A DNA stretch of 23,190 nucleotides from Catajapyx aquilonaris (taxonomy: Eukaryota): contig JYFJ02000293.1 of NCBI GenBank assembly GCA_000934665.2, positions 124,001-147,190 on the forward strand, given 5' to 3'. This document shows, piece by piece, positions 1-22,964 of the stretch. The position numbers and the translations under genes are program-made. The first letter of the stretch is position 1; the number at the start of each line of letters is the position of its first letter. The notes below the pieces were generated by a model that worked only from the letters and a program-made list of their open reading frames with translations, did not search any database and had not been told where the DNA came from.

Positions 1-14
1 TAGTTCGTTTGGTG

Positions 15-116
15 TGACGTCATCGTTCCTTGTGCATCACTGGCTTTGACGTCATAATTCCTGGTTTTTACTGGCTTCGTCGTCATCATTCCTTATATCC
101 ATTAATAATGACGTCA
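15..116. repeat. Short degenerate ~30-bp repeats containing TGACGTCA (CRE-type palindrome)
   Basis: TGACGTCA at 15-22, 47-54 and 109-116, plus a variant CGTCGTCA; units such as actggctttgacgtcataattcct / actggcttcgtcgtcatcattcct. Could be a TE subterminal array or an enhancer. Confidence 0.45.
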
Positions 117-1967
117 CGCCACTTGCAACGTCGGTAATAACTTCTGACGCGACCAAAATCTGTCTAATTTTTTTAAAAATAATGCTGATTAGTGTACTAA
201 AGCACTAAAGCAGTTACATGTTGAAGATGGTCGTAAAATTACATTCAAAAATTTATTTTTTTGTACATTGTGGAACAGTAATGCTGTGCTCCTCTATCTT
301 TTACGATTATATTTTTTTAAAAATATTTGTAGGTTTGTTCTCTGTGAAGAAAAGCTATTCATGGAGAGAGTTTTCGCGACGTAGTTGTTTTTTTATTTAA
401 AAAAACATTGCTCAGCAAATGTTGAACAAAAGTCATTCTCTAGCCTGTCATCTTTTTATTTTTTTTTCTAGAACTCTTTGAACTATGTTTTTGTAGGCTA
501 ATGACTTTTTTTTAAAATTGCTTTCCATCTCTACCTCTTTTTCATCCCTCAAAAACATGCTTAGGCGATTTTATTAGTTTACTATTGAAAATTCTTTCAG
601 GTAAGGGGGATTTTTCTTCAAATAAAAAAAGAAGGATTGTCTAGTTATTTAAGTATGATGGAAAGTGCTATTTATTTGGACGGAGGAAAAAGAAAAGAAA
701 TTTATGAATGGGACTAGATGTAGTCCTTGGAGGCCATCTATTATATTTTTTTTGGTATTTCCTTCATCCAGGAGTGGACATAAAATATGACATTTCACCA
801 CCGATAAAAATATGTGCGCAATTATTAATACAAGTGAAATGTCGATTTTATGACACTCTTTTGAAAGGTAATAATAATGCTCCTCAAGAAGAAGAAGAAA
901 AAAAAGTATCCTGTACAAACACTTGTAAATAAAGTGGCTTCCAAATCACACAAAACGGAAGCTGTAGCCCTCATGAAATTATTGTGAGTTTATTTTCCCA
1001 CAATCTAGTTACTAATATTATGAATATTAATTTACCTATATATGAATCTTCTGATACAAACTAAACAATAACGTCGTGAAACCAATTTTTGAATTATTTT
1101 GCTATTAGAAATTTCCATTTTCTCTCGTCTAATTATTTTTTAAATTATCGCAACTGATCACTGGCACCAGCAACTTTTTTTTGCACATTTTTTATTACTG
1201 ACTGTTCATTTGCGTGGGTGTAAAGTGACTTTGTAATGTATTGAAGGCTCTGAAAAGTTCTTGATTTCCTTTATCTCGGTGACTACGGGCAGTTATCTAC
1301 TGACTAATCGCTGGCCAAACATTGCGTTCAAAAAAAGTCTATCTTATCAATAAGCTCGGCACGTTGGTGTATACCTATACCAGAGAATGCAAGACTAAAA
1401 TAAAACACTCAAGGTTTCTATGCCTTGTTCAGTAAGTAATGTTCTGATGATTTTTGAGGAGCAATGATGCACTATCATGTACTGAAATTCCATCAATTTT
1501 TGTACTACAAATTTTCAGAAAAAAAAAACAATCCCTCAATTTAATGAGCATCAACATGTGGAGTATTGTACAATATCTCTTCATGCACTGTTTCGTATAA
1601 ATTATTTTGTACACCATGTTTGTTAACAAAAATGATTCAGAGCACTATTTTTTCTGTGTATCTTTCTCTCTGTATTTTTTGTGTCGACATCAATTACCAG
1701 TTCCGGTAGTGAATCACAGCATGAGGCATCCAGGTAAGTTCGACAACGCAGCGATGAAAAATCCCTGGGCGACAATCTAATCTAATCCTCGTGTACTCTT
1801 TGTTCCAATAGGTGAGAAGAAGCGTCCTCTTTTTTTCAACCCACAGTGTGCCAGATAACAAAGCGTTCAGTTTGAGAAGCCAAACGGGATTTGAACGTAC
1901 AGAAAATTTGGAGCAAGTGTGTATCACACACACATTTTTGAAACTTAAAAAAAATAAGTGGTGAAAG

Positions 1968-4928
1968 ATGGCTGGAGGAAGCGGAAGAGGCAAAGGAGAG
2001 AGGGCCATCATGTATCTTGGATATTATGTTGGATTCTGCAACATTCTGGCCTGGGTGAGTTGGAAAAAAAACTTTTGGTTCAAAACCTGAATTTTGTCGT
2101 TATATTATTTTAAATAGGTTGTATGCAATATGGGGCACTTTCCAAGTCACTTCTCCTAGAGCTATCCATCATTGTTATCTCTGGAAGCCAACTATGCACT
2201 TGGCTTCATAGGAAGTCATTGCAATCATTATGTATGATCACATGACAAAGTGTGCACCTAAGGTCTCCAATTGCAATTTTTTTCGTTGTACATACGGATT
2301 ACATGCAATAAGTTTTGATTCAAATTCTGCATAGGCGTACGGTTCATCAGATTAAAATAAGTGAGTTTCTTTCTTGGGATCATTACTGCACACAAATACC
2401 TGCGAGATAAGCGTGACCTCGTAGAAATGGTTAGATATGACTCACTGAACCATCAGTGTTTCTATTTGTACTTAATGGCTACGAGTACGAGAAGTAAACT
2501 GAAGTGTATATAGCCTTAAGAGGGAACCTCATACCAGTTTTAACAATTTTCATGACAATTTTAATGACAATGTGAACATATAGTTAAAAAAAATGATTGT
2601 GCGATCGAGCACATTACGAACTTTCATGAGTTCAGAATAATAACATTTTAAATATAACTTAATGATTTTTAGTCTCATATAGGAATGACCTGTCAGGTGG
2701 CAGCGATAACTTCATGACGTTTCACATCATTTCTGCCTGAGTCACTGTCTGTCAATGTTATCTCTTTGCCCATCTATCCGTTGGAATCTGTATACAGAAA
2801 AATATGTTGAATGACCTGTCTAAACATCAATAATTTCTCTCTCTCTCTCTCATTATGACAGATATTCGGTGTGTGCATATTCAGCTTGGCCCTATGGATC
2901 AGGTTCCAGTCGGACTTCCAGAGCTGGGTGAAGGAGCTTCAGATGTACCAGTACTGGACCGGAGACTACATCCTGCTGGGAGGTGCCATCATCGTCATGA
3001 TCATCTCCTTCCTGGGATGCTGCGGAGTCGCAATGGAGAACGCCTGCATGCTCATGACGGTCTGTACTATATACACACGCAATTGAAGGTCACTTACACT
3101 TCAACTGCAGGAACTGAACGAGGTCCAGACCAGGTCTTCAGAAACTGAACCAGGTTCAGTTCAGGTCTTCAGAAACTGAACCAGGTCCAGACCAGGTCTA
3201 GATCAGGAACTGAACTAGGTCCAGATCAGGTCTTCAGAAACTGAACCAGTCTAGATCAGGTCTTCAGAAACTGAACCAGTCTAGATCAGGAACTGAACTA
3301 GGTCCAGATCAGGTCTTCAGAAACTGAACCAGGTCCAGACCAGGTCTAGATCAGGAACTGAACCAGGTCCAGATCAGGTCTTCAGAAACTGAACCAGGTC
3401 CAGACCAGGTCTTCAGAAAGTGAACCAGGTCCAGATCAGGTCTTCAGAAACTGAACCAGGTCCAGATCAGGGCTTCAGAAACTGAACCAGGTCCAGATCA
3501 GGTTTAGATCAGGTTCAGCTTCCTTCATGGCTGTGTAAATGATCCTGTTTGTTGCATATATTAAATTATCTTTCATTGTTATCGCTGGCTGTCCTATTTG
3601 TGATAATAAATTGTGTGTAGAACGTGGTGATGGGAGTGGTGAGCGTGATCCTATTGTTGGTAGGATCAGTGGCCCAGCTGATCCTGGGCCTGAACTCCAG
3701 AGAGGACGAGGAATGGATCACTGAAAGATTCATTGATATTAAGAAGCGGAACGAGTTCTACATTGACCTTCTCTACTTTCTAAGAGACGTAGTAAGCAGT
3801 TCACCAAAAATATTATTCGCTTTGTGATGTCTCTTTTTTCGAGTAGCTCGCATCACAACGTTTTACTGTGTACGGTGTACTTCTTGTGAACTCAGACAGT
3901 CAGCGATAAAATATAGTTACATATGCACATATGAATGTATTTTTTTCCATTTGGATAGTTTGTAGGATTGTTGTCCTTGACCTTTCTGATCGAGCTGGCC
4001 GGAGCTGCTTACATGCTCAACAATGGAATCGGAGTGTCGCAGCTGGGCAGGTTCCTCCAGGACACCTTCAGAGGTGCGGTGTACACGTACGGAGACAACC
4101 CAAGGATGACATCCATCATGCGAATCATGCAGGAATTCGTGAGTACAAAATATTCGCGTAAATGATGCGGGCTACTCACACAGCAGGCTTTTCATTGTTT
4201 GGAGGGAAAAAAAAAATTTGTTGTCACAAAATGATTACTATTTATTTGTTTTGTCCACAGGTCAAGTGTTGCGGTGCTCAGGGTGCTCAGGACTACAATT
4301 TGGTGCACAAGCCTGTGCCCATCGAGTGCCGTGACCCCGTGACCGGAAATCAGTGGCCCAACGGGTGTGTCAAAGGGTTCTCCGCATACCTGGAGCTCAA
4401 GACAGGCTGGATTTGTGGTCTTGCACTTGTCCTTTGCGTCCTGCAGGTTAGTGACCAGCAGTCAGGTCATCAAGGTGACCTCACTTGGCCTGTATAGTAG
4501 GCTAGGTGCTCATGTCTATATCAGGCACTCAGATAATGATACTAACAAACAGGCCTACATTAATAATTAAACTGTACATAGCAATATTTCCATTGTTAGA
4601 ATTACGCCTTGTAGTATATAATAGTTGGACGAATTACATGAAAGAAAACTCTGGCACATCATTTAAATAATTTATATAATATCAATAAAATGAAAATGGC
4701 CTACATTGTCCCTGCAGATGTTGACTCATCACCTAGGTGCATGTAGTTGCCATAGTTTGGGAGTAGTTATCGCCATCTACTTGTGGCATATCATACTATG
4801 TACTACGTCCAAGTTGGGGGCGGTCTGGGCAGCGTTGTCAAATTTTGGCCCATATTAAATAAATCATTCAGACTTTCTGCCTGACACCATTTGAGCTGAT
4901 TGCCACAACTTTCTTTCAATTAACTTGT

Positions 4929-4992
<64 letters not shown>

Positions 4993-5763
4993 ATAGGCGT
5001 TTCGTTAAAAAAGTTTTTTTTTGAGACAACGTTTTTTGCTCGGTACAGTTTTATCTGATCAGGAGTTTATTTGGGCAATGATACTGGACCACTGCTTTAT
5101 TATTAAGGTCCATCCAACAATGCCTGATCAGACTAGAAAAAATAACTGGGGATTCCCTCCCCCCCGCTTCGTCCTGTGCTACCTTCCAGATATCCAATAT
5201 AGTGGCTGGGGTTCTGCTGGTGCGAAAACTGCGGCAAACAGAAGACGAAGGACGCCGATACGACCCAGTCAAAACGAAATAAACACATACAAAAAACACA
5301 TATCCGAAAAAAAATATTGTAATATATTTTTCTCTTTCAAAAAAATTCGCAAAGCACACAACTTGTCCGCTTCACATGCTTTTTTTCATCTTTCTTCTCG
5401 CCGCGTTTTTATGTCGCCATATTTGGGTGGGGGCATTGCTTTATATATTATTTGGTCGTCATTGCTGAAAAACATTTTTTTTGTCATGTTTTGCAGTGTG
5501 TTCCAACTGAAGTGTCAGTAGTGATTGCTATAATATTAGTAGCTAATATATTATTCAAAAAACAAGTGCTTGCCAATCAGCGTTTCAGTAGATGCCAAAA
5601 ATTCGCAAAATAATCACTATGGACACACAGGTTGGAACGCATCGAATAAATGGACGCAAGCACTATCGCCACATTGTTGTTGCAGATCACTCTGATTGTT
5701 GCCGGAATCATCCTCGTGCGGAACATCAAGAAATCAGATCGCCCATCAAAAGGCGCATATTGA
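1968..5763 (+). CDS. Tsp2A: Tetraspanin, Tsp2A-like (smooth septate junction type); ~242 aa with exon 3B or ~239 aa with exon 3A
   Basis: Exons 1968-2054 (MAGGSGRGKGERAIMYLGYYVGFCNILAW), 2862-3059 (IFGVCIFSLALWIRF...ISFLGCCGVAMENACMLMT), 3621-3791 or 3959-4138, 4261-4446 (VKCCGAQGAQDY...PVPIECRDPVTGN...GCV...KTGWICGLALVLCVLQ) and 5686-5763 (ITLIVAGIILVRNIKKSDRPSKGAY*). All introns are GT-AG, phase 0. Four TMs, CCG motif, and a P.P..CRD.VTGN...GC...KTGW segment as recalled for Tsp2A. AATAAA at 5931-5940. Tetraspanin call is firm; Tsp2A orthology is from memory. Confidence 0.88.
3108..3515. repeat. Intronic minisatellite, ~31-bp unit AGGTCTTCAGAAACTGAACCAGGTCCAGATC with variants
   Basis: More than 10 head-to-tail copies read directly in tetraspanin intron 2. 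Confidence 0.95.
3621..3791 (+). CDS. Tetraspanin alternative exon 3A (TM3 + N-part of EC2)
   Basis: tgtgtag|AAC...GTA|gtaagc; 171 nt, phase 0-0, open frame: NVVMGVVSVILLLVGSVAQLILGLNSREDEEWITERFIDIKKRNEFYIDLLYFLRDV. Hydrophobic TM followed by a polar helical segment, the same layout as 3B. Confidence 0.72.
3841..4177 (+). promoter_or_regulatory. Putative selector (3841-3855) / docking site (4163-4177) RNA duplex flanking exon 3B
   Basis: GAGTAGCTCGCATCA is complementary to TGATGCGGGCTACTC over 15 bp (14 Watson-Crick pairs + 1 G-U). Confidence 0.65.
3959..4138 (+). CDS. Tetraspanin alternative exon 3B (TM3 + N-part of EC2)
   Basis: ttggatag|TTT...TTC|gtgagt; 180 nt, phase 0-0: FVGLLSLTFLIELAGAAYMLNNGIGVSQLGRFLQDTFRGAVYTYGDNPRMTSIMRIMQEF. 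Typical TM3 Glu and IMQ motif preceding CCG. Confidence 0.88.
4930..4992. repeat. (TAG)21 microsatellite
   Basis: Pure trinucleotide run in the last tetraspanin intron. Confidence 0.97.
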
Positions 5764-6013
5764 AAAATGAGTCCAGCAGCTTTGTTTTTTTATTATTATT
5801 GCCCATATTGTGTGTTATCAACTCTCTTTTTAAATTTCCACGTATATTGTTTAGTGATGTAGACAGTCAACTTTTTAGACCATATTTTGTATTCAACGGG
5901 GACCAAGAATTTGTGTAATCAACCCAAAAAAATAAATAAATAATGTAAGCCAATAAATGAACCCCACAGAAAGTGGGCCCCAACAACCCCCCCGAATCTT
6001 TATATTTTAAAAA

Positions 6014-6790
6014 TGTAAGGAATTTGCGATTACAGCACGTTTTTTTTGCAACACTGGCCGGCGACTCCGAATTCCATTGTTGTATGGACTAAACAACAAT
6101 TTTATCGTATACAGCTTATTTCGAAGAAAAAAAAAATCAACCCCAGCAATTCTATTCTTCATTATCCACGCTGACTGTAAGGAATTTGTAATTACATGAT
6201 TTTTTTTGCAACACTGCCCGGCGACTCCGAATATTCCATTGTTGTATGGGCTAAAAATTGAAACAAAAATTTTTATCGTAGATACAGCATATTTTTCAAA
6301 AATCAACCCCGCAACGACTCTATTCTTTATTATCCACGCTGAATGCAAGGAATTTGTGATTACATTAGGGAGCATATACTATACATAAGAGGCGAGAACA
6401 TTCGATTTTCGTGTCTCTCTGTTTGGGGCGTTGCCAAGGGGCGGCCATTTTGAAGTGTGTGCAACGCCAACGAGGTATAAATAGGGCACAGGCAAAAAGA
6501 AGGTCCGCCATCTTTAATTCACTCGTGATCTTGCCGTGTAGTTGCCATGGGCGCCAAAACCATCAAAGATGGCGGACCCAATTTTTGCCTGTGCCCTATT
6601 TATACCTCGTTGGCGTTACCCACACTTCAAAATTGCCGCCAGCCTTGGCAATGGCCCCAAACAGAGAGACGCGAACATCAAAGGCACCGACAGAAGTTTG
6701 CGCTTCTTATGTAGTGTATGCTCCCTGATTACATGCTCTTTATCAGGCTGGCGACTCCTAATTACAACGTTGTTATTCTCACAATTTGCA
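6014..6790. repeat. Degenerate ~165-bp tandem repeat (3 copies; third interrupted by a MITE)
   Basis: Units start tgtaaggaatttg at 6014 and 6176, and tgcaaggaatttg at 6344. Shared blocks gcaacactg..cggcgactccga, ttccattgttgtatgg, attatccacgctga. The third copy resumes after 6735 (ggcgactcc at ~6750). Confidence 0.8.
6367..6726. mobile_element. Foldback/MITE with long TIRs and 8-9 bp TSD (Mutator- or hAT-like)
   Basis: Ends AGGGAGCATATACTATACATAAGA / TCTTATGTAGTGTATGCTCCCT; ~150-bp imperfect inverted arms (e.g. aacgccaacgaggtataaatagggcacaggcaaaaa / tttttgcctgtgccctatttatacctcgttggcgtt). Flanked by GATTACAT(T) 6358-6366 and GATTACAT(G) 6727-6735. Confidence 0.88.
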
Positions 6791-7729: not shown

Positions 7730-8140
7730 AGCCGCGTTTACATGCAGCCGAGTTGATCGGTTTTTCCGACCGGCCTAAGCGCGCCGTATGATTGATGCTG
7801 CGTTTACATGGGCAGCGATGTACGTTCGAAAATATATTGTAACATCGCTGCGCATGTAAACGCAGCATCAATCATACGGCGCGCTTAGGACGGTCGTACA
7901 TCGCTGCACATGTACATCGGTCGTACATCTGTCGTACATCGCTGCGCATGTACATCGGTCGTACATCGCTGAGCATGTACATCGCTCGTACATCGCTGCG
8001 CATGTACATCGGTCGTACATCGGTCATACATCGCTGCGCATGTAAACGCAACTTCGGTCATACGAAGCGGTTAGGACAGCCGGAAAAACTGATAGTTCAG
8101 CTTCAGTCATACGAAGCGCTTTGGACGGTTGGAACGACCG
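7730..8140. mobile_element. Nested palindromic MITE-like element (GCGTTTACATG termini, PIF/Harbinger-like) with internal tandem repeats
   Basis: AGCCGCGTTTACATG (7730) / CATGTAAACGCAACT (ends 8053). Near-perfect ~55-bp-arm palindrome 7767-7896; tandem GTACATCGCTGCGCATGTACATCGGTC repeats 7896-8040; 8054-8094 is a degenerate reverse complement of 7756-7796. No clear TSD. Confidence 0.7.
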
Positions 8141-8753: not shown

Positions 8754-9855
8754 TATAAGCCATTTTTTGGGGGGGAAAATGTGCGTCAAATATGATGACT
8801 GCTGACCTTCACTTGCTGCACCGACCTTTTTTTTTTAGGTTGGCATTGTAATTTGCTCTACTACGAATGCGCTTTGTTCCGGATATGGTGCAAGTGGGAA
8901 TTTTCGAGGTGAATGTGGGAAAACAATTGCGATTTATCTGGTGCCGTGCAGGAGCATTCTGGGAACGGTTGCATTCAAGGCTACATATTAGAACTGCACT
9001 CGAGGCTTTAATTTAGGGGGCTGTCTTATATTCATCGTAATTATTGGAAAAAAAATTACATTTGAGGGGTACATGAGATCAAAAACGGCCACGTCTGCTT
9101 TGAAAACCTGGTCGTAAAATGAGCAGAAACTGATGATTACATAATCTTTTATGTCCACGGTTCAGCTACGTACGCAAATGCGCACTGGCATTAAAATACA
9201 TAATTTCTGCACGTTTGTGTTGGCCATTTTTGATCTCCTTTACTGGTCAATCTTCTGATTTAACAATGACTTTTTCTTAGTGTAAAAGCATTGTGACACG
9301 TGCAATGAGGAGAATAAAACGGCAGGAGGGCTTGAATCTTCAGATCAGTCAGGAAACAATGTGCTGCGTGAACTTCATGTAAGGAGAGTTGCAGCGCGTG
9401 CGTCACGTGCAAGTGATATGCGATGCCAGGGGATGAGGCTGGGAAGGCCTTGAAGTGGGCCTGCAGAATAATAACTGGAGCTGATAGCATTTTCGAAGCG
9501 CCTGCCATTTTTTATTCATTCGGCAGGCAGTTGTGATGTCAACGCCTACGTCGAACCTTTTCCTGGAACTGAGTACGTTGCCACAGGGCAAACAGCTTCT
9601 GCGGATTTGTTTGAGCCGTTTTTAGGTGACGGATGAGGATAATTTTTACCTGGATTGTATTTCATGGTCCGCAATTATTGCCTGTGGACAGACAATTTGT
9701 TTGTGGGGTTCGGGTTATGAGCAAGCCTGGCCCAGTCTGTTCTTATCCGTGGCTGGCTTGGAAATTAATGGGAAGTGTCTAGACCAGGTCTGGCCGTCCT
9801 TGTGATCATGCAAAATGATGCGAATGACTCATCCGAGTCGAGCAAAACCTGAATC

Positions 9856-9996: not shown

Positions 9997-10675
9997 CAAA
10001 TTATGCCTTCTCCTCAGGTGCGACTGAGAGCGGAATTGAGGCTGGTTTCACCGCTGCCTTATTGCGACCGGATCCGGCGCCGGACTCGTTGGATCTGCGA
10101 TTCATGAGCTGGGCCCCGCCAATTGAACGAGTAGCACACAGGTGAGTGTCACGAGGGGGGTTTGCATTTTGCCCATGTCGTGAAGAAATGTCGGCAATAT
10201 TGGGGATGTCAATATGTAAACTTTGGATCATTTCCAAAGGCGTGCACTTGACTTATCCTGCAACGGAGGGGAGGGGAAACGCTATCTTCACTGGTATGAC
10301 CTTTTCAGGGGCACTTTGAAACAACAAGAGCCTTGATAATTCGTAGGATTCCCGACAATTTCAGGTCATGAGGACACGCAAAAACATTCGCATGATTATT
10401 ACAGTAATAATTCTAATAATAAGAATCTTGTGGTCATTTCAATAATGCAGTGCGACTTGTTTCCAGGACGTCCAAGTTCTGTGGCGACGTGGATTCAGAG
10501 CAGATCCGTGCAACCTGAAGGGGACCCCACCCGACTGCTGCAGGGGTGTGTGTGTGAGGGCTGGAAACGGAACGGGAACGATAGGAAGGGAAGGAGGGCA
10601 GGGGGACAGGGTGGGGGGATTCTCGGCTTTTGAAGGGAGGAAGGCGCTGCGCCGCCGCCGCTTTACCTGGCGAGG

Positions 10676-12142
10676 ATGGCCACCTACAATGTGAACCGTG
10701 GGGTGACGGACGCGTACTACCGCTACAAGATGCCTCGTCTCGTGGCCAAGGTGGAAGGGAAGGGCAACGGGATCAAGACCGTCATCGTCAACATGGTCGA
10801 CGTTGCCAAGGCGCTCGGGAGGCCTCCCACATGTAAGTGGCAGCCATTAACTGCTCACTGTCTGTAGAATCACGTTTTCCTCGATCCAACCCAGATCCGA
10901 CCAAGTACTTCGGATGCGAGCTCGGTGCTCAGACGCAGTTTGACTTCAAGAACGAGCGGTTCGTGGTGAACGGCAGCCACGACGCGGACCGCCTGCAGGA
11001 GCTTCTCGACGGGTTCATTCGCAAGTTCGTCCTGTGCCCGGAGTGCGACAACCCCGAGACGGTGCTGCACGTGCAGTCCAAGCGAGGCCAGGTCTCGCAG
11101 TCCTGCAAGGCCTGCGGGCACTCCTGCACGCTCGACCATCGCCACAAGCTCCTCACCTTTGTCCTTAAGAACCCACCAGGTCAGGATTCTTCTAAGTTTT
11201 CCCCCCTGGTGAGAATGTGTTTTTCATAAATCGTTGCGGACATTTCCAGACCAGAAACCGGCAGCCCAGGGCTCATCCCTGACGGAAGGCAAGCGCGGGA
11301 AGCGTGGATCGAAGAAGAGCAGCCCTCCAAAGGAGGACTCCCCATCCCCACCGACGGAGAAAAACGGAGAGAGCCGTGGCCACAAGGACGACGACGACGA
11401 CGATGGGGATTGGTGTGTCGATGTCAGCGAGGAGGCAGTCAGGGCGAGGATGCAGGCGCTCGGAGAAGGCATTGTCAAAGGTCAGATCTGCTCACATACA
11501 CAAGCGGTTGTCCGTTTCTGACGTTCTGATGTTACTTGCAGGTCTGAACCTGGTGGATGTGGCGGAGACCTCCGAGCGTAACCGCCTGGACAACTTCTAC
11601 ACCTTCATCCGCTCCAAGCTGGAGGGCGATCAGCTTGACCCTCGGAAGGTGTGCGCAGAGGCCGACGCCTTGGGAATCAAGCCGAAGGCCCCGCTTGTGC
11701 TGGCCGAGCTCCTCCTCCTGGACCAAGCCGACGGGAAAGGTGCCGCCGGGGTGCTCCAGCAGATCAAGAAGTACGCCAAACTGTTTGCCTGCTTCACCCA
11801 GGGCTGCCCTCGAGCGCAGAGATACCTGCTGGGTGGGATCGAGCAGCTGGTTGCTTCCAACAAGGACACGCTGATGCCCAAAGTTCCGCATATTCTGAAG
11901 GTTCGTTTGCATTGGATTTACCAGTTTGTACGACAAGTGCGACAATTTTTCGTTTGTGCTTCTTTTTAAAGGTGTTTTACGACCTTGACATCTTGGATGA
12001 GGAGGTGATCCTGGACTGGGGGAAGAAGCCAAGCAAGAAGTTTGTGAGCCGCGACGTCAGCGCTGAGATCCGGGGCAAGGCGGCTCCATTCCTGAAGTGG
12101 CTGGAGGAGGCCGAGTACGAAGACGAAGACGACACCGAGTAG
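10676..12142 (+). CDS. eIF5: Eukaryotic translation initiation factor 5 (400 aa)
   Basis: Exons 10676-10832, 10895-11179, 11250-11480, 11542-11900, 11972-12142; GT-AG, phases consistent, 1203 nt. N-term [16 protein letters not shown]...GKGNGIKT...[14 protein letters not shown], zinc finger CPECDNPET...CKACG, C-terminal W2 AA-boxes ([25 protein letters not shown]). Confidence 0.97.
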
Positions 12143-13293: not shown

Positions 13294-15981
13294 TTATTTG
13301 TCGTCGTCTTCAAGCTCCTCGTACTGGAAATCCTCGGGGGGAGCCTCGGTCATTCGGACGGTGAGGCGGACGGGAAGGGACAGGAGGGATTTGCGGGTGG
13401 AGGATGTGACTGGGTTGTCTCGTAGGTCGAACTCTTGCAAGGAGGTGCAGGCACGGACTGCTTCCACTTCCACCTCTGTTGGGGGGATAATGAGCGGATA
13501 ATTAGCCTGCTTTTTTTAAATGAAGCTGGAGACTTACCTGCAATGTAGTTCTTTAAGGCGTTGAGGTGCATTATACGGGGAAGCTTGAAGAGGGCGCGGG
13601 GAAGGGTCGCGAAAGAGTTGTGCGAGATGTTGACTCGACGGAGCCTATGCAGCTCGGACACCTCGTCGGGAAGCTTGCTCAACCTGTTGTTCGACAGGTT
13701 CAAGTCTGAAAAGACACATTGATGCTTATTGAGTAATTAGCGCGTCGGTATTGCCCAGTGAGTGTTGCAATAGTATGTTGCTCTCACGTGCCAGTGACGT
13801 GTACCGTCTGTGGGTTGGTGGAGAGAGTTTGACTCTGTGGGAAATCCCCAGCATGTGGCAGACTTCCAGGATTCCGATCCAGGAATAGATCGGACCAAGC
13901 AGCCAGTGTGTTTCGCAATGTGTTGCCAACCCAAGAGCCGCGCAGAATATATCTCGCTCTCTCTCTTTTTTTTTCTTAAAGGTGCGTTATTTTGCATTTC
14001 GACGAGGTCCTGAACCCTTGCCAAAATTTCTGGTTAGTCCCAACACGTCTGTTTACCTCCGCACTTTTTCTTGGAAGCGCCCGATGTGTATCTGGTGCGA
14101 ATAGAGAAGCCACGGTCATTCACGTGCGCAATTGCGTAATTACAATGGTGTGTACATGTCGGGCTGAAAGTACTGTGGTGTAATACGATTTGGAATTCTG
14201 TGAATTTGCACAATGCGCCATTGGCCGTTTAACTTCATCGCAAAGGACAGAATTTACAGAGTTACCTGACTTGAAATGCTGGTTTAAAATCACCTAATGT
14301 TAGTTAACGAACAATTGGTTTTTCCTACATATTTATACGTTTGAAGCTGGTATTTAAGGTAGTTAACATTGTATTTAGACTACTTGTAGAATTAATTTTT
14401 AACAAAGTTGAGCGAGTTATGGGAGGAATGTTATGGTTGATTTGTTGATGAGAAATTTTTGTCCGTAAAAATTGGCAAATTGTCTCTTACAGAGGTTCGC
14501 AACAATTGTTGCTTCTTTACGAACTTGTAGCGTAAGCAACCATTTCTTCGTGAACTGGTGAGTATATGGCTCGTTCCACTTTTAATATTGATGTAAAAAT
14601 TTGGCAACTTTTTTCGCAGGACCTGGAAGCGGCCAAAAATCCTGGAAGTGTTTTTGACCAAGCCGATCTTAAAATAAGCAGCTTTTCTTTTAAAAAAAGA
14701 TGAGCCGAACTGGGCTGTTTGTGTTAGAAACGATGACCTCACACTGGGTTTCCCCACAACATCAGCGTCAACCACGTGGGTTGCTACGGATCTTTCATGA
14801 GAAGAAAGAAAGAGAGGTGAAGACGGTCAGCGTCCTTCCAGGTTCTATTTCGAGAAGCAGAAAATTTTGACTTTTTGCCCAACGATGGCGAAACTGCGCA
14901 TCTGACTGCTTGCTGATCGTAGCTTTTTATTTATTTTGTACGGTGTTTATTTTGCATCCTTGTTACCAATCAAATTTTGGCTGGAAGCCAAAATTGCACT
15001 GCGAGGTAGAGGGATTTTGAAAAAAAAAAAAAAAAAGTTGTTGTGACAGGTTTTTGCCTAGTGCTCAAGGTTTTGGATTTTTGCAAAACATTGCAAAATT
15101 TTCCTCGCTACAACTATTGTTGTAGGATAATTTTCAATCTACAATTTCAATCTAAGAATCCTCGTCAAACCCTTGAGCACGAGACACTGTCACAACAATG
15201 TATTAATTTATTTTTTTAATTTGAAAAATCTATCTATTCGCAGCTATTGTTGTTGTAGTAATGGCTGATATAACATAATTTTCTTTGTCACTTGTAGGAT
15301 GAATTTTAAAAATTGTTGAATTGAAAAAAATTTGCAAATTGTCTTTTATAGCAGTTATTTTCCCCTTTCTTTTAAATTAGCGCACAATAAAGCCTCGTTT
15401 ACATGTGAGCGATTTGACAAGCGAAGCAGTGCGATTATCGCCTCAAACAATAGGTACTGATTACATTGGTTACTCGACAATGTTATCGCTCGTCGAAGGC
15501 TTCGCTCATCAAATCGCTCATATGTAAATGCAGCTTAAGTCAAATCATGGGAACAAATTGGAATGTGCTGGACCTATCCTGACAACTTCTGTTCAAACGG
15601 TCAATGTCCTGAGTGGACAACTTACATGCCATTGGCTACGTAAGTTGTCTGGGAGTACATTTCCCCTTTTATTACTCAACTGTTTGCTCTGTTTACTCAC
15701 CAGTGATGAAGGTGAACTTGAGGGCCAACTTGGGTGGAATCTTTGTGATGACGTTTGAGGAGAGGTTGCAACCCTGAAGCTGCGTGTGGCGCATCAGGTG
15801 AAACACAGCATCAGGAATCTGCATCAGCTGGCACTCGCTCAGATCTGCCAAAAATCATACAGAGAGAGAGAACCTGATCAGTTATGTGGCAATGGTGCCA
15901 TTTTGTTGTGATCTGACCTAAGACCAGAGTGATGGTCGCATCCTCGCAACGATGGACCACGCGAGTTACAGCGTTCGCCAT
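13294..15981 (-). CDS. LRRC20: Leucine-rich repeat protein LRRC20-like, proximal-first-exon isoform (185 aa)
   Basis: Exons 15981-15918 (MANAVTRVVHRCEDATITLVL), 15844-15701 (DLSECQLMQIPDAVFHLMRHTQLQGCNLSSNVITKIPPK...), 13705-13538 (DLNLSNNRLSKLPDEV...), 13475-13294 (EVEVEAVRACTSLQEFDLRDNP...EDDDK*). All introns GT-AG, phase 1. AV.RV...LDL.EC.L N-terminus as recalled for LRRC20. Confidence 0.88.
15000..15242. mobile_element. Degenerate inverted-repeat element (old MITE) in LRRC20 intron
   Basis: Symmetric inverted blocks ttgttgtgacag/ctgtcacaacaa and gtgctcaagg/ccttgagcac around a central ctacaac..gttgtag hairpin. Boundaries approximate. Confidence 0.5.
15391..15535. mobile_element. PIF/Harbinger (Tourist-like) MITE, 145 bp, TAA TSD
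   Basis: TAA|AGCCTCGTTTACATGTGAGCGATTTGA ... TCAAATCGCTCATATGTAAATGCAGCT|TAA. Confidence 0.85.
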
Positions 15982-21997: not shown

Positions 21998-22964
21998 ATG
22001 AAGACCAGCATCCCGGAATTAATCCAGATTAAGAGAGGTGGTCACGAGTGGACCGAAGACCAGGTCAGGCACCTGGTGAGGTCAATCGTGACCAAACAAG
22101 TGGCCGAGTCACAAATAGGTAAGTGATTAACCAGAAGAGGGAATAAAATCAGTGAATAATTTTTCGGTTTGCAGGAGCAATGTTGATGGCTATAGTGTTG
22201 AATGGGATTGGCGCCAAGGAGACTGCGGCTTTGACAAAAGCCATGGTCGAAACAGGTACTGTTAACTGTTTTTTTTTGTAACAGCTATAGTAGGGGTAAG
22301 CTAACTTATGGGTTTTTGGGAGGTGGCTTGTGTCCTTCGCAACCATAATTAGCTCCGCCCCCTACCGGTCGACCAATCAGGATTCGATTTCATAACGCCC
22401 ATCTCCTTTGAAATCGAATCCTGATTGGTCGACCGGTAGGGGGCGGGGCTAATTATGGTTGCCAATGTCACTATAGCCACCTCCCAAAAACCCATAAGTT
22501 AGCTTACCCCTACTCTGCCGTCCGCTCAAAGAAAACCGTAACTCAAAATCCACTTCCCTTGCGGTGAGAAAAGTAAGCAAGTGTTACCGAAAGCATCCAA
22601 GAGGTGGCGTTGAAGGAAGTGAGAAAGGAACGGGCACCCAAAGTCCACCTGTTGGATGATTTTGGTACCACTACTTTTTTTTCTCGCCGCAAGGGAAAGT
22701 GGATGTTGAGTTACGGTCTTCTTCGAGCGGATGGCAGTACTGTAGTTTGACCAACCATTCTTTCAAACGTAGGTGATCGCATGAAGTGGCCGTCTGAATG
22801 GCGTGGTCAGCTTGTGGACAAACATAGCACTGGAGGAGTAGGCGACAAAGTGTCTCTGATTCTGGCTCCAGCCTTGGCCTCTGCTGGACTCAAGGTGCCT
22901 ATGGTCAGCGGAAGAGGACTCAGCTTCACTGGAGGGACACTGGACAAGCTGGAGTCTATTCCAG
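21998..22964 (+). CDS. TYMP: Thymidine phosphorylase, 5' partial (continues beyond window)
   Basis: Exons 21998-22118 ([15 protein letters not shown]...ESQI), 22175-22255 ([11 protein letters not shown]...[12 protein letters not shown]), 22773-22964 (GDRMKWP...[22 protein letters not shown]...[24 protein letters not shown]). Signature motifs [10 protein letters not shown] and [18 protein letters not shown]. Confidence 0.95.
22289..22514. mobile_element. Near-perfect palindromic MITE/foldback (~105-bp arms) in TYMP intron 2
   Basis: AGTAGGGGTAAGCTAACTTATGGGTTTTTGGGAGGTGGCT... / ...AGCCACCTCCCAAAAACCCATAAGTTAGCTTACCCCTACT with a short central loop. Confidence 0.88.
22515..22737. mobile_element. 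Second MITE abutting the first, long imperfect TIRs, followed by TA
   Basis: CTGCCGTCCGCTCAAAGAAAACCGTAACTCAA / TTGAGTTACGGTCTTCTTCGAGCGGATGGCAG|TA; inner inverted blocks atccactt/aagtggat and cccttgcgg/ccgcaaggg. Confidence 0.85.

Follow-up and report, generated by a model that had tools for sequence, protein, structure and literature searches.

Two interleaved intronic duplexes and a possible RNA-pairing switch between candidate tetraspanin exons in Catajapyx aquilonaris

Introduction

How could a pre-mRNA be made to include exactly one of two neighbouring exons when including both, or neither, would leave the reading frame intact? The question is raised by a tetraspanin gene on the plus strand of a 23,190-nucleotide stretch of Catajapyx aquilonaris DNA (assembly GCA_000934665.2, contig JYFJ02000293.1, positions 124,001 to 147,190; hereafter the window), in which exon 3B, present in a spliced contig, is preceded by a candidate alternative exon, 3A. 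We found that the introns around these exons hold two long-range complementary sequence pairs, each enclosing one exon and interleaved with the other. By analogy with the two-stem system of Drosophila serpent (srp), we tentatively favour a bidirectional RNA pairing switch for the exon pair 3A/3B, a reading that we hold with slightly less than even confidence.

All exon boundaries in the region are phase 0. Double inclusion and double skipping would therefore both stay in frame, and frame-dependent quality control would be unable to enforce exclusivity. As the 167-nt intron between 3A and 3B is also too long for steric exclusion, a mechanism based on RNA structure is a reasonable one for making a single choice. 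The literature searched, main articles only, yielded no account of a tetraspanin exon pair controlled by RNA pairing; it also contained nothing relevant on mutually exclusive exons in tetraspanins, including Drosophila Tsp.

A tetraspanin gene and its exons

The plus strand of the window encodes a tetraspanin gene, as seen from matches to the Pfam family PF00335 in exons 2 and 4. Its relevant parts, in window coordinates, are the following.

2862 to 3059, plus strand: tetraspanin exon 2; 66 codons, phase 0 at both ends; encodes transmembrane segment 1 (TM1), extracellular loop 1 (EC1) and TM2.
3621 to 3791, plus strand: candidate alternative exon 3A; 57 codons, phase 0; acceptor TAG at 3618-3620, donor GTAAGC at 3792.
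3959 to 4138, plus strand: exon 3B; 60 codons, phase 0; donor GTGAGT at 4139; present in the spliced contig.
4261 to 4446, plus strand: exon 4; 62 codons, from the VKCCG motif through the beginning of TM4.
5190 to 5282, plus strand: last coding exon; starts ISNIVAGVLLVRKL... and ends at the stop codon; the loose end of the contig after 4446 matches from 5190.

Exon 2 matched the PF00335 Tetraspanin model above the cutoff (E 9.3e-09, 35.7 bits). The match of exon 4 (E 3.3e-07, 30.6 bits) falls just below the whole-protein cutoff of 32.1 because this exon is a fragment; it carries the CCG motif of the large loop (VKCCG) that is expected of the tetraspanin family. Exon 3B encodes TM3, with the motif FLIELAG, and the beginning of the large extracellular loop. 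Pfam searches with 3A alone or 3B alone gave no relevant match, and when exon 4 was compared with metagenome contigs, 250 pattern stretches matched with no relative among them.

Splicing was followed in a single contig of 881 nt, from one public sequencing run that shares 0.33 of the words; no RNA run was listed as a match. The contig spans 3958-4138 and 4261-4446 with zero differences, and its joint 4138->4261, bordered by GT..AG, verifies both the 4139 donor and the 4261 acceptor. Its loose end abutting 3B is formed by the final 30 letters of exon 2. Because the contig thus joins the ends of exon 2, 3B, exon 4 and the sequence from 5190 onward, an mRNA composed of exon 2, 3B, exon 4 and exon 5 exists. 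Contigs of this kind demonstrate the presence of a form, never the absence of others.

Between exon 2 and the upstream arm of stem I (described below), a 31-nt tandem repeat (window 3108-3503; 12.9 copies, 85% matches, consensus CAGAAACTGAACCAGGTCCAGATCAGGTCTT) takes up most of intron 2; it adds length to the distance that this stem would need to bridge. A perfect (GTA)21 microsatellite lies in intron 4 (window 4929-4992).

Two stems, each enclosing one candidate version of exon 3

Four short intronic elements form two duplexes, here called stem I (around 3A) and stem II (around 3B).

3579 to 3593, plus strand: Ud, upstream docking-like arm of stem I, TTATCGCTGGCTGTC; ends 27 nt before the 3A acceptor.
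3841 to 3855, plus strand: Us, upstream selector-like arm of stem II; starts 49 nt past the end of 3A.
3895 to 3909, plus strand: Ds, downstream selector-like arm of stem I, GACAGTCAGCGATAA; ends 49 nt before the start of 3B.
4163 to 4177, plus strand: Dd, downstream docking-like arm of stem II; 24 nt past the end of 3B and 83 nt before exon 4.

Stem II had been described in a first-pass annotation of the window as a 15 bp duplex with one G-U pair, and all its coordinates and sequences proved correct. In it GAGTAGCTCGCATCA (3841-3855) and TGATGCGGGCTACTC (4163-4177) form an unbroken helix of 15 bp, 14 of them Watson-Crick and one a wobble (U3848-G4170), with no extension possible at either end; the arms alone give -26.0 kcal/mol. 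The annotation had also claimed a preference for the sense RNA, and this was borne out. Because the wobble turns into a mismatch on the minus strand, stem II works on the plus strand only; read from the minus strand, these two introns offer no contiguous helix better than -10.3 kcal/mol. Folding of 3780-4270, which had been put forward as a check, placed the duplex in both the minimum free energy (MFE) structure and the centroid, with a z-score of -2.01 for the region and 2 of 100 shuffles folding at least as well.

Stem I surfaced in the native-background scan and encloses the candidate exon 3A as stem II encloses 3B. Its arms (3579-3593 and 3895-3909) likewise form 15 bp without a break, including a single wobble (G3588-U3900), at an energy of -23.9 kcal/mol. 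Like stem II it is specific to the sense strand, each stem needing its G-U pair. Every arm has one full partner: the sequences of Us and Dd have no other copy in the window at up to 1 mismatch, the arms of stem I have no second copy there, and the other window match to the arms carries 3 mismatches and lies outside the gene (at 9816 or 9743). The annotation had interpreted stem II as a single docking site in the style of 14-3-3zeta; with stem I present, and with no second copy of either arm in the window, that interpretation is supported only in part.

Along the RNA the order is Ud, 3A, Us, Ds, 3B, Dd. Since Ud pairs with Ds and Us with Dd, the two stems are interleaved and have the topology of a pseudoknot. 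The layout is nearly symmetric, with loops of 301 nt (stem I) and 307 nt (stem II) and both middle arms 49 nt from the adjacent exon. Stems I and II are the two strongest contiguous helices in 2862-4446, and also the strongest two when window positions 1-6000 were scanned on both strands for spans of up to 1200 nt. The third-strongest helix in that scan (-23.3 kcal/mol; 10-23 / 108-121) is far from the tetraspanin gene, and the best helix around a constitutive exon reached -18.5 kcal/mol.

Shuffled controls point the same way. The energy of stem II was reached in none of 1500 dinucleotide shuffles of its two introns (best shuffle -24.0) and in none of 2000 in a second run on three introns, and that of stem I once when intron 2 and the 3A-3B intron were shuffled 2000 times. 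Both intron pairs jointly attained -16 or lower in 1 of 2000 dinucleotide shuffles. In a native control, 10 of 1136 geometry-matched placements in the window, on both strands, reached -26.0, three of which are stem II itself. Both stems exist as complementary sequence, far above chance. An Rfam scan of 2800-5300 found nothing at gathering score; its three sub-threshold matches all fall in the 31-nt tandem repeat.

The nested fold of 3504-4300 favours stem I, which out-competes the stem II of the first-pass annotation: stem I is in the MFE structure with pair probabilities of 0.6-1.0, the probability of stem II is 0, and forcing either stem gives ensemble energies of -250.95 (stem I) and -246.77 kcal/mol (stem II), a result that is descriptive only, folds of about 800 nt being unreliable and blind to pseudoknots. 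The dominance of stem I agrees with a spliced contig that contains 3B. Stem I is also transcribed before stem II, which fits 3B as the observed form.

Other helices were seen in the same region. A third long-range helix (3597-3612 / 4215-4230, -15.0 kcal/mol) was discarded as being at chance level (129 of 2000 shuffles). A 12 bp helix of -18.5 kcal/mol between the acceptor region of exon 4 and a site 36 nt past its donor (4257-4268 / 4482-4493) likewise encloses an exon and is weaker than stems I and II. The 3A donor GTAAGCAGTTC (3792-3802) is complementary to 4002-4012 inside 3B over 11 bp (-15.5 kcal/mol, an energy in the chance range); such a pairing could mask the 3A donor once 3B has been transcribed. 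Finally, imperfect complementarity over 20 nt extends outward from both stems, with 70% pairing at 3553-3572 / 3908-3927 (stem I) and 80% at 3808-3827 / 4224-4243 (stem II, past an asymmetric gap). These extensions could be helper helices or remnants of longer inverted repeats.

Local hairpins that compete with the stems

Three of the four arms have alternative partners close by.

3822 to 3829, plus strand: local partner of the 3' end of Us; pairs with 3851-3858 in a perfect 8 bp stem.
4139 to 4159, plus strand: local partners of Dd, namely the 3B donor GTGAGTA (4139-4145) and TTCGCGT (4153-4159).
3600 to 3609, plus strand: local partner of the 5' half of Ud; pairs with 3576-3585; presumed branch-point/polypyrimidine zone of 3A.

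The competitors of Us and Dd are as the first-pass annotation had described them, an 8 bp stem and a hairpin of the 3B donor with an inner stem. The Us hairpin (3822-3829 / 3851-3858) has a local MFE of -11.8 kcal/mol, equalled by 9 of 200 shuffles. For the donor hairpin, in which 4139-4145 pairs with 4173-4179 around an inner 7 bp helix (4153-4159 / 4165-4171), a local MFE of -12.5 kcal/mol is matched by 15 of 200 shuffles. With stem II formed, the 3B donor pairs instead with about 4150-4157 (MFE structure of 3780-4270). The Ud hairpin (3576-3585 / 3600-3609) is weak, at -8.4 kcal/mol with 15 of 200 shuffles as good. Taken singly, the Us and donor hairpins are only weakly above chance.

Coding potential of candidate exon 3A

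The reading frame of 3A is open precisely from acceptor to donor and is the same as that of 3B, and its donor is a good one. Its G+C content is 0.47, against 0.34-0.35 in the flanking introns, and its composition by codon position resembles that of the confirmed exons: G or C occupies 38 of 57 third positions (GC3 0.67), whereas GC2, the value for second positions, is 0.23. Open AG..GT candidates of 150-210 nt number 311 in the window. The difference GC3-GC2 is at least 0.40 in 30 of them, all in exon 2, 3A or the coding sequence of eIF5, a gene further downstream. The 3A peptide consists of a transmembrane-like segment followed by a polar or amphipathic one, and the hydropathy profiles of 3A and 3B correlate (0.56 to 0.78). 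By its phase, splice sites, GC3 periodicity and transmembrane profile, 3A looks like coding sequence.

WebScipio, as described in PMC3228551, recognizes mutually exclusive exons by similar length, compatible splice sites, frame and sequence similarity. Exons 3A and 3B agree in length (57 vs 60 codons, within 20 amino acids), in AG...GT sites and in frame; similarity is taken up below. Searches of PDB sequences with 3A and 3B returned chance-level matches only and were set aside (KAT5 at E 2; actinohivin at E 0.003 via a repeated short motif).

A possible switch of the serpent type

On the reading that we favour, TM3 and the first part of the large extracellular loop would be encoded by an exon with two candidate versions, 3A (3621-3791) and 3B (3959-4138), and the four short GC-rich intronic elements would form two long-range RNA stems. 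With 3A hidden in the 301-nt loop of stem I, the exon 2 donor would have a shorter path to the acceptor of 3B, and 3B would be chosen. With 3B hidden in the 307-nt loop of stem II, about 130 nt would separate the 3A donor from the acceptor of exon 4, and 3A would be chosen. The balance between the stems would set the 3A/3B ratio and prevent the joining of both exons or the skipping of both, and it may be tuned by the local hairpins, which would sequester parts of Ud, Us and Dd, as well as by the weak 3A acceptor. Formation of the stems in vivo, use of 3A and the direction of each stem's effect are what we infer from this arrangement.

The closest parallel is srp. Exons 4.1/4.2 of the Drosophila gene are governed by bidirectional RNA pairing, with two stems and a possible long-range pseudoknot (Yue et al. 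2016, RNA 22:96; PMC4691838). Disruptive and compensatory mutations there showed that the upstream stem drives use of the distal exon and that the downstream stem is required for the proximal one; when both stems are lost, double inclusion and skipping rise (PMC4691838). As in srp, there are here two alternative exons and one upstream, two middle and one downstream intronic element; the upstream element pairs with the second middle one and the first middle one with the downstream one, so that the stems interleave and each encloses one exon. The order of the middle elements is also the same, with the downstream docker's partner preceding that of the upstream docker, as formulated by Ivanov and Pervouchine (PMC6071210). 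The element order and pairing of an srp-type system, and pairings that are above chance and sense-specific, are thus found here. The first-pass annotation had held that its duplex loops out 3B and brings the 3A donor near the 4261 acceptor; this agrees with the role of stem II in srp, where it was tested, and captures half of the architecture only. Unlike srp, which encodes a GATA factor, the present gene encodes a tetraspanin, and it differs further in its short, perfect 15-mer stems, its near-equal loops and its exons without detectable homology. Further bidirectional cases are RIC-3, MRP1 and some Dscam clusters (PMC6071210).

Unidirectional systems resemble one half of the layout each. In 14-3-3zeta, Mhc and MRP1 a downstream docking site works with upstream selectors (Yang et al. 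2011, as cited in PMC4691838 and PMC6071210). Stem II is like them in that its docking-like arm lies past the last variable exon and its other arm shortly after the exon that would be activated, so that their pairing loops out the exon in between; it is unlike them, with their several selectors per docking site, in having one partner per arm and a second stem upstream. Dscam exon 6 has one docking site, 48 selectors sharing a consensus and a global repressor (Graveley 2005, as cited in PMC4691838 and PMC6071210). Stem I has its polarity, in that the docking element is upstream and its partner sits immediately before the chosen exon, with a single pair in place of 48 selectors. The docking sites do lie outside the cluster and a selector adjoins each variable exon, as in unidirectional systems, in which a docking site has at least two selectors and can pair with one of them at a time; here it has one, and the local partners are just 7-10 bp long. 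Because the outer arms pair crosswise with the middle arms, the analogy with 14-3-3zeta covers stem II only. In human ATE1, exons 7a/7b are governed by competing intronic structures, R1-R5 (PMC7797038). That system shares with ours a two-exon either/or choice under several long-range intronic pairings, one of them spanning exons. It is unlike ours in that two of its elements compete for a shared partner and one pairing is ultra-long-range, whereas no arm is common to both stems here.

Evidence against a switch and alternative explanations

Several observations weigh against the switch. The acceptor of 3A is weak, with a poor polypyrimidine tract. The sole spliced contig joins exon 2, 3B and exon 4 and leaves 3530-3957, including 3A, uncovered, a gap that carries no information on 3A usage. 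Nor did we detect homology between the two exons: BLASTP of 3A against 3B gave no alignment at E <= 100, and a global BLOSUM62 alignment of the two scored 0, or 0% of the self-score of 303, with 87 of 3000 shuffles equal or better, so that the pair falls short of the WebScipio similarity threshold (by default at least 15% of the self-score). The first-pass annotation presumed that 3A and 3B make up an exon pair; of the two, only 3B occurs in the contig, and 3A is a candidate. Searched against longer proteins, the 3A peptide gave 19 candidates, none at E <= 1, and phmmer against 1.84 billion representatives returned 0 matches; this blank is uninformative because the confirmed exon 3B is equally blank (39 candidates among longer proteins, none at E <= 0.01). 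The flanking introns have no significant direct-repeat similarity to each other (221 of 1000 and 176 of 1000 shuffles as high; 383 of 1000 and 701 of 1000 in further comparisons among them), and the duplication origin proposed for such systems is thus not visible.

The pairing itself also offers points against the reading. A whole-intron duplexfold control was weaker than the others (observed -52.7, shuffle mean -40.6, 35 of 2000 as low); we replaced it with the contiguous-helix measure because duplexfold chains helices across very long interior loops. In the native control, the other 7 of the 1136 placements that reach -26.0 come from three loci with long inverted repeats. The stems share no nucleotides and could form simultaneously. 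Their effects could moreover be of opposite sign, freeing masked splice signals, since both the 3B donor and the stretch immediately preceding the 3A acceptor lie within local hairpins.

Both duplexes might instead be inverted repeats at the level of DNA without RNA function, produced by chance, from the ends of old mobile elements or by replication slippage. Inverted repeats abound in the window (86 pairs, each 14 nt or longer, within 600 nt), the energy of stem II is reached at three other native loci, weaker complementarity runs outward from both stems as in degraded terminal repeats, and ours is a single-sequence observation from a post-hoc search. We nevertheless regard this explanation as unlikely. 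Two independent single-copy pairs each bracket exactly one alternative exon, the one imperfect position of each pairs as G-U in the sense RNA, they rank first and second among the helices in 6 kb with a joint shuffle probability below about 1 in 2000, no target-site duplication was seen by eye and the window holds no further copies. Alternatively, the stems may be real RNA structures around a 3A that is a cryptic, dying or newly arising exon, silenced by the looping of stem I, in which case stem II and the donor hairpin would merely modulate the splicing efficiency of 3B or be relics. The finding would then shrink to an unusually structured intron. The 3B isoform alone is seen in the contig, 3A has its weak acceptor, no homology to 3B and no relatives, and stem I dominates the predicted ensemble, all of which would fit. 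An open frame with strong GC3 periodicity is, however, unexpected of neutral sequence, and a stem that loops out a constitutive 3B would be harmful if 3A were useless; we think it rather improbable that 3A is unused.

A single docking site of the 14-3-3zeta kind (4163-4177) with its selector (3841-3855) might also be the whole switch, stem I being irrelevant. Stem II is indeed the strongest helix found, is placed as in downstream-docking systems and has arms with local competitors. Yet stem I is nearly as strong, equally improbable by chance and symmetric, it wins the nested fold, and the docking site lacks a second selector, which makes this simpler scheme quite doubtful. To the idea that the stems promote back-splicing, giving single-exon circular RNAs from 3A or 3B, we attach very little credence: it has the geometry in its favour, each stem juxtaposing the acceptor and donor of one exon, but stems of 15 bp are short and no back-splice joint is found among the contig joints. 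The srp-type switch for 3A/3B therefore stays our preferred, if tentative, reading. A more specific form of it, a minimal, near-symmetric two-stem pseudoknot switch between non-homologous versions of TM3 and the first helix of the large loop, one of them without the conserved TM3 glutamate, we put forward as a conjecture that is more probably wrong than right by a good way.

Other features of the window

Downstream of the tetraspanin gene lies an eIF5 gene (10640-12142, plus strand), with an eIF-5_eIF-2B domain (E 3.6e-24) and a W2 domain (E 8.4e-18). Its best named homologues are from insects, at 73-80% identity, with none closer in the database searched. On the minus strand, an open frame at 13350-13736 encodes leucine-rich repeats (LRR_8, E 4.9e-08) and is probably an exon of a neighbouring leucine-rich repeat gene.

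Long imperfect inverted repeats lie at 6376-6719, 7756-8093, 15390-15536 and 22289-22737, with arms of 38-79 nt and 80-100% complementarity. They look like foldback elements or miniature inverted-repeat transposable elements, and such repeats account for the placements that matched stem II in the native-background control. A tandem array with units of 27-65 nt occupies 7891-8044.

Discussion

Few cases of bidirectional pairing are known, and those named in the extracts of PMC4691838 and PMC6071210 are fly genes and insect Dscam clusters. An srp-type switch in this tetraspanin gene would not surprise specialists in arthropod splicing; it is the non-homologous exons that raise a question, that of origin. 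If the exons are indeed unrelated and the introns bear no trace of duplication, the two-way layout would have arisen de novo around an exon that was recruited, and this, if true, runs counter to the tandem-duplication origin proposed for such systems.

The locus would also be a compact case, with two 15-mer stems, loops of about 300 nt and a cassette of less than 1.5 kb. Such a cassette suits the questions of whether interleaved stems compete or coexist, how local hairpins tune them and how a switch can originate without exon duplication. For the protein, exchange of TM3 and of the base of the large extracellular loop would, if the switch is real, alter partner binding within one tetraspanin gene.

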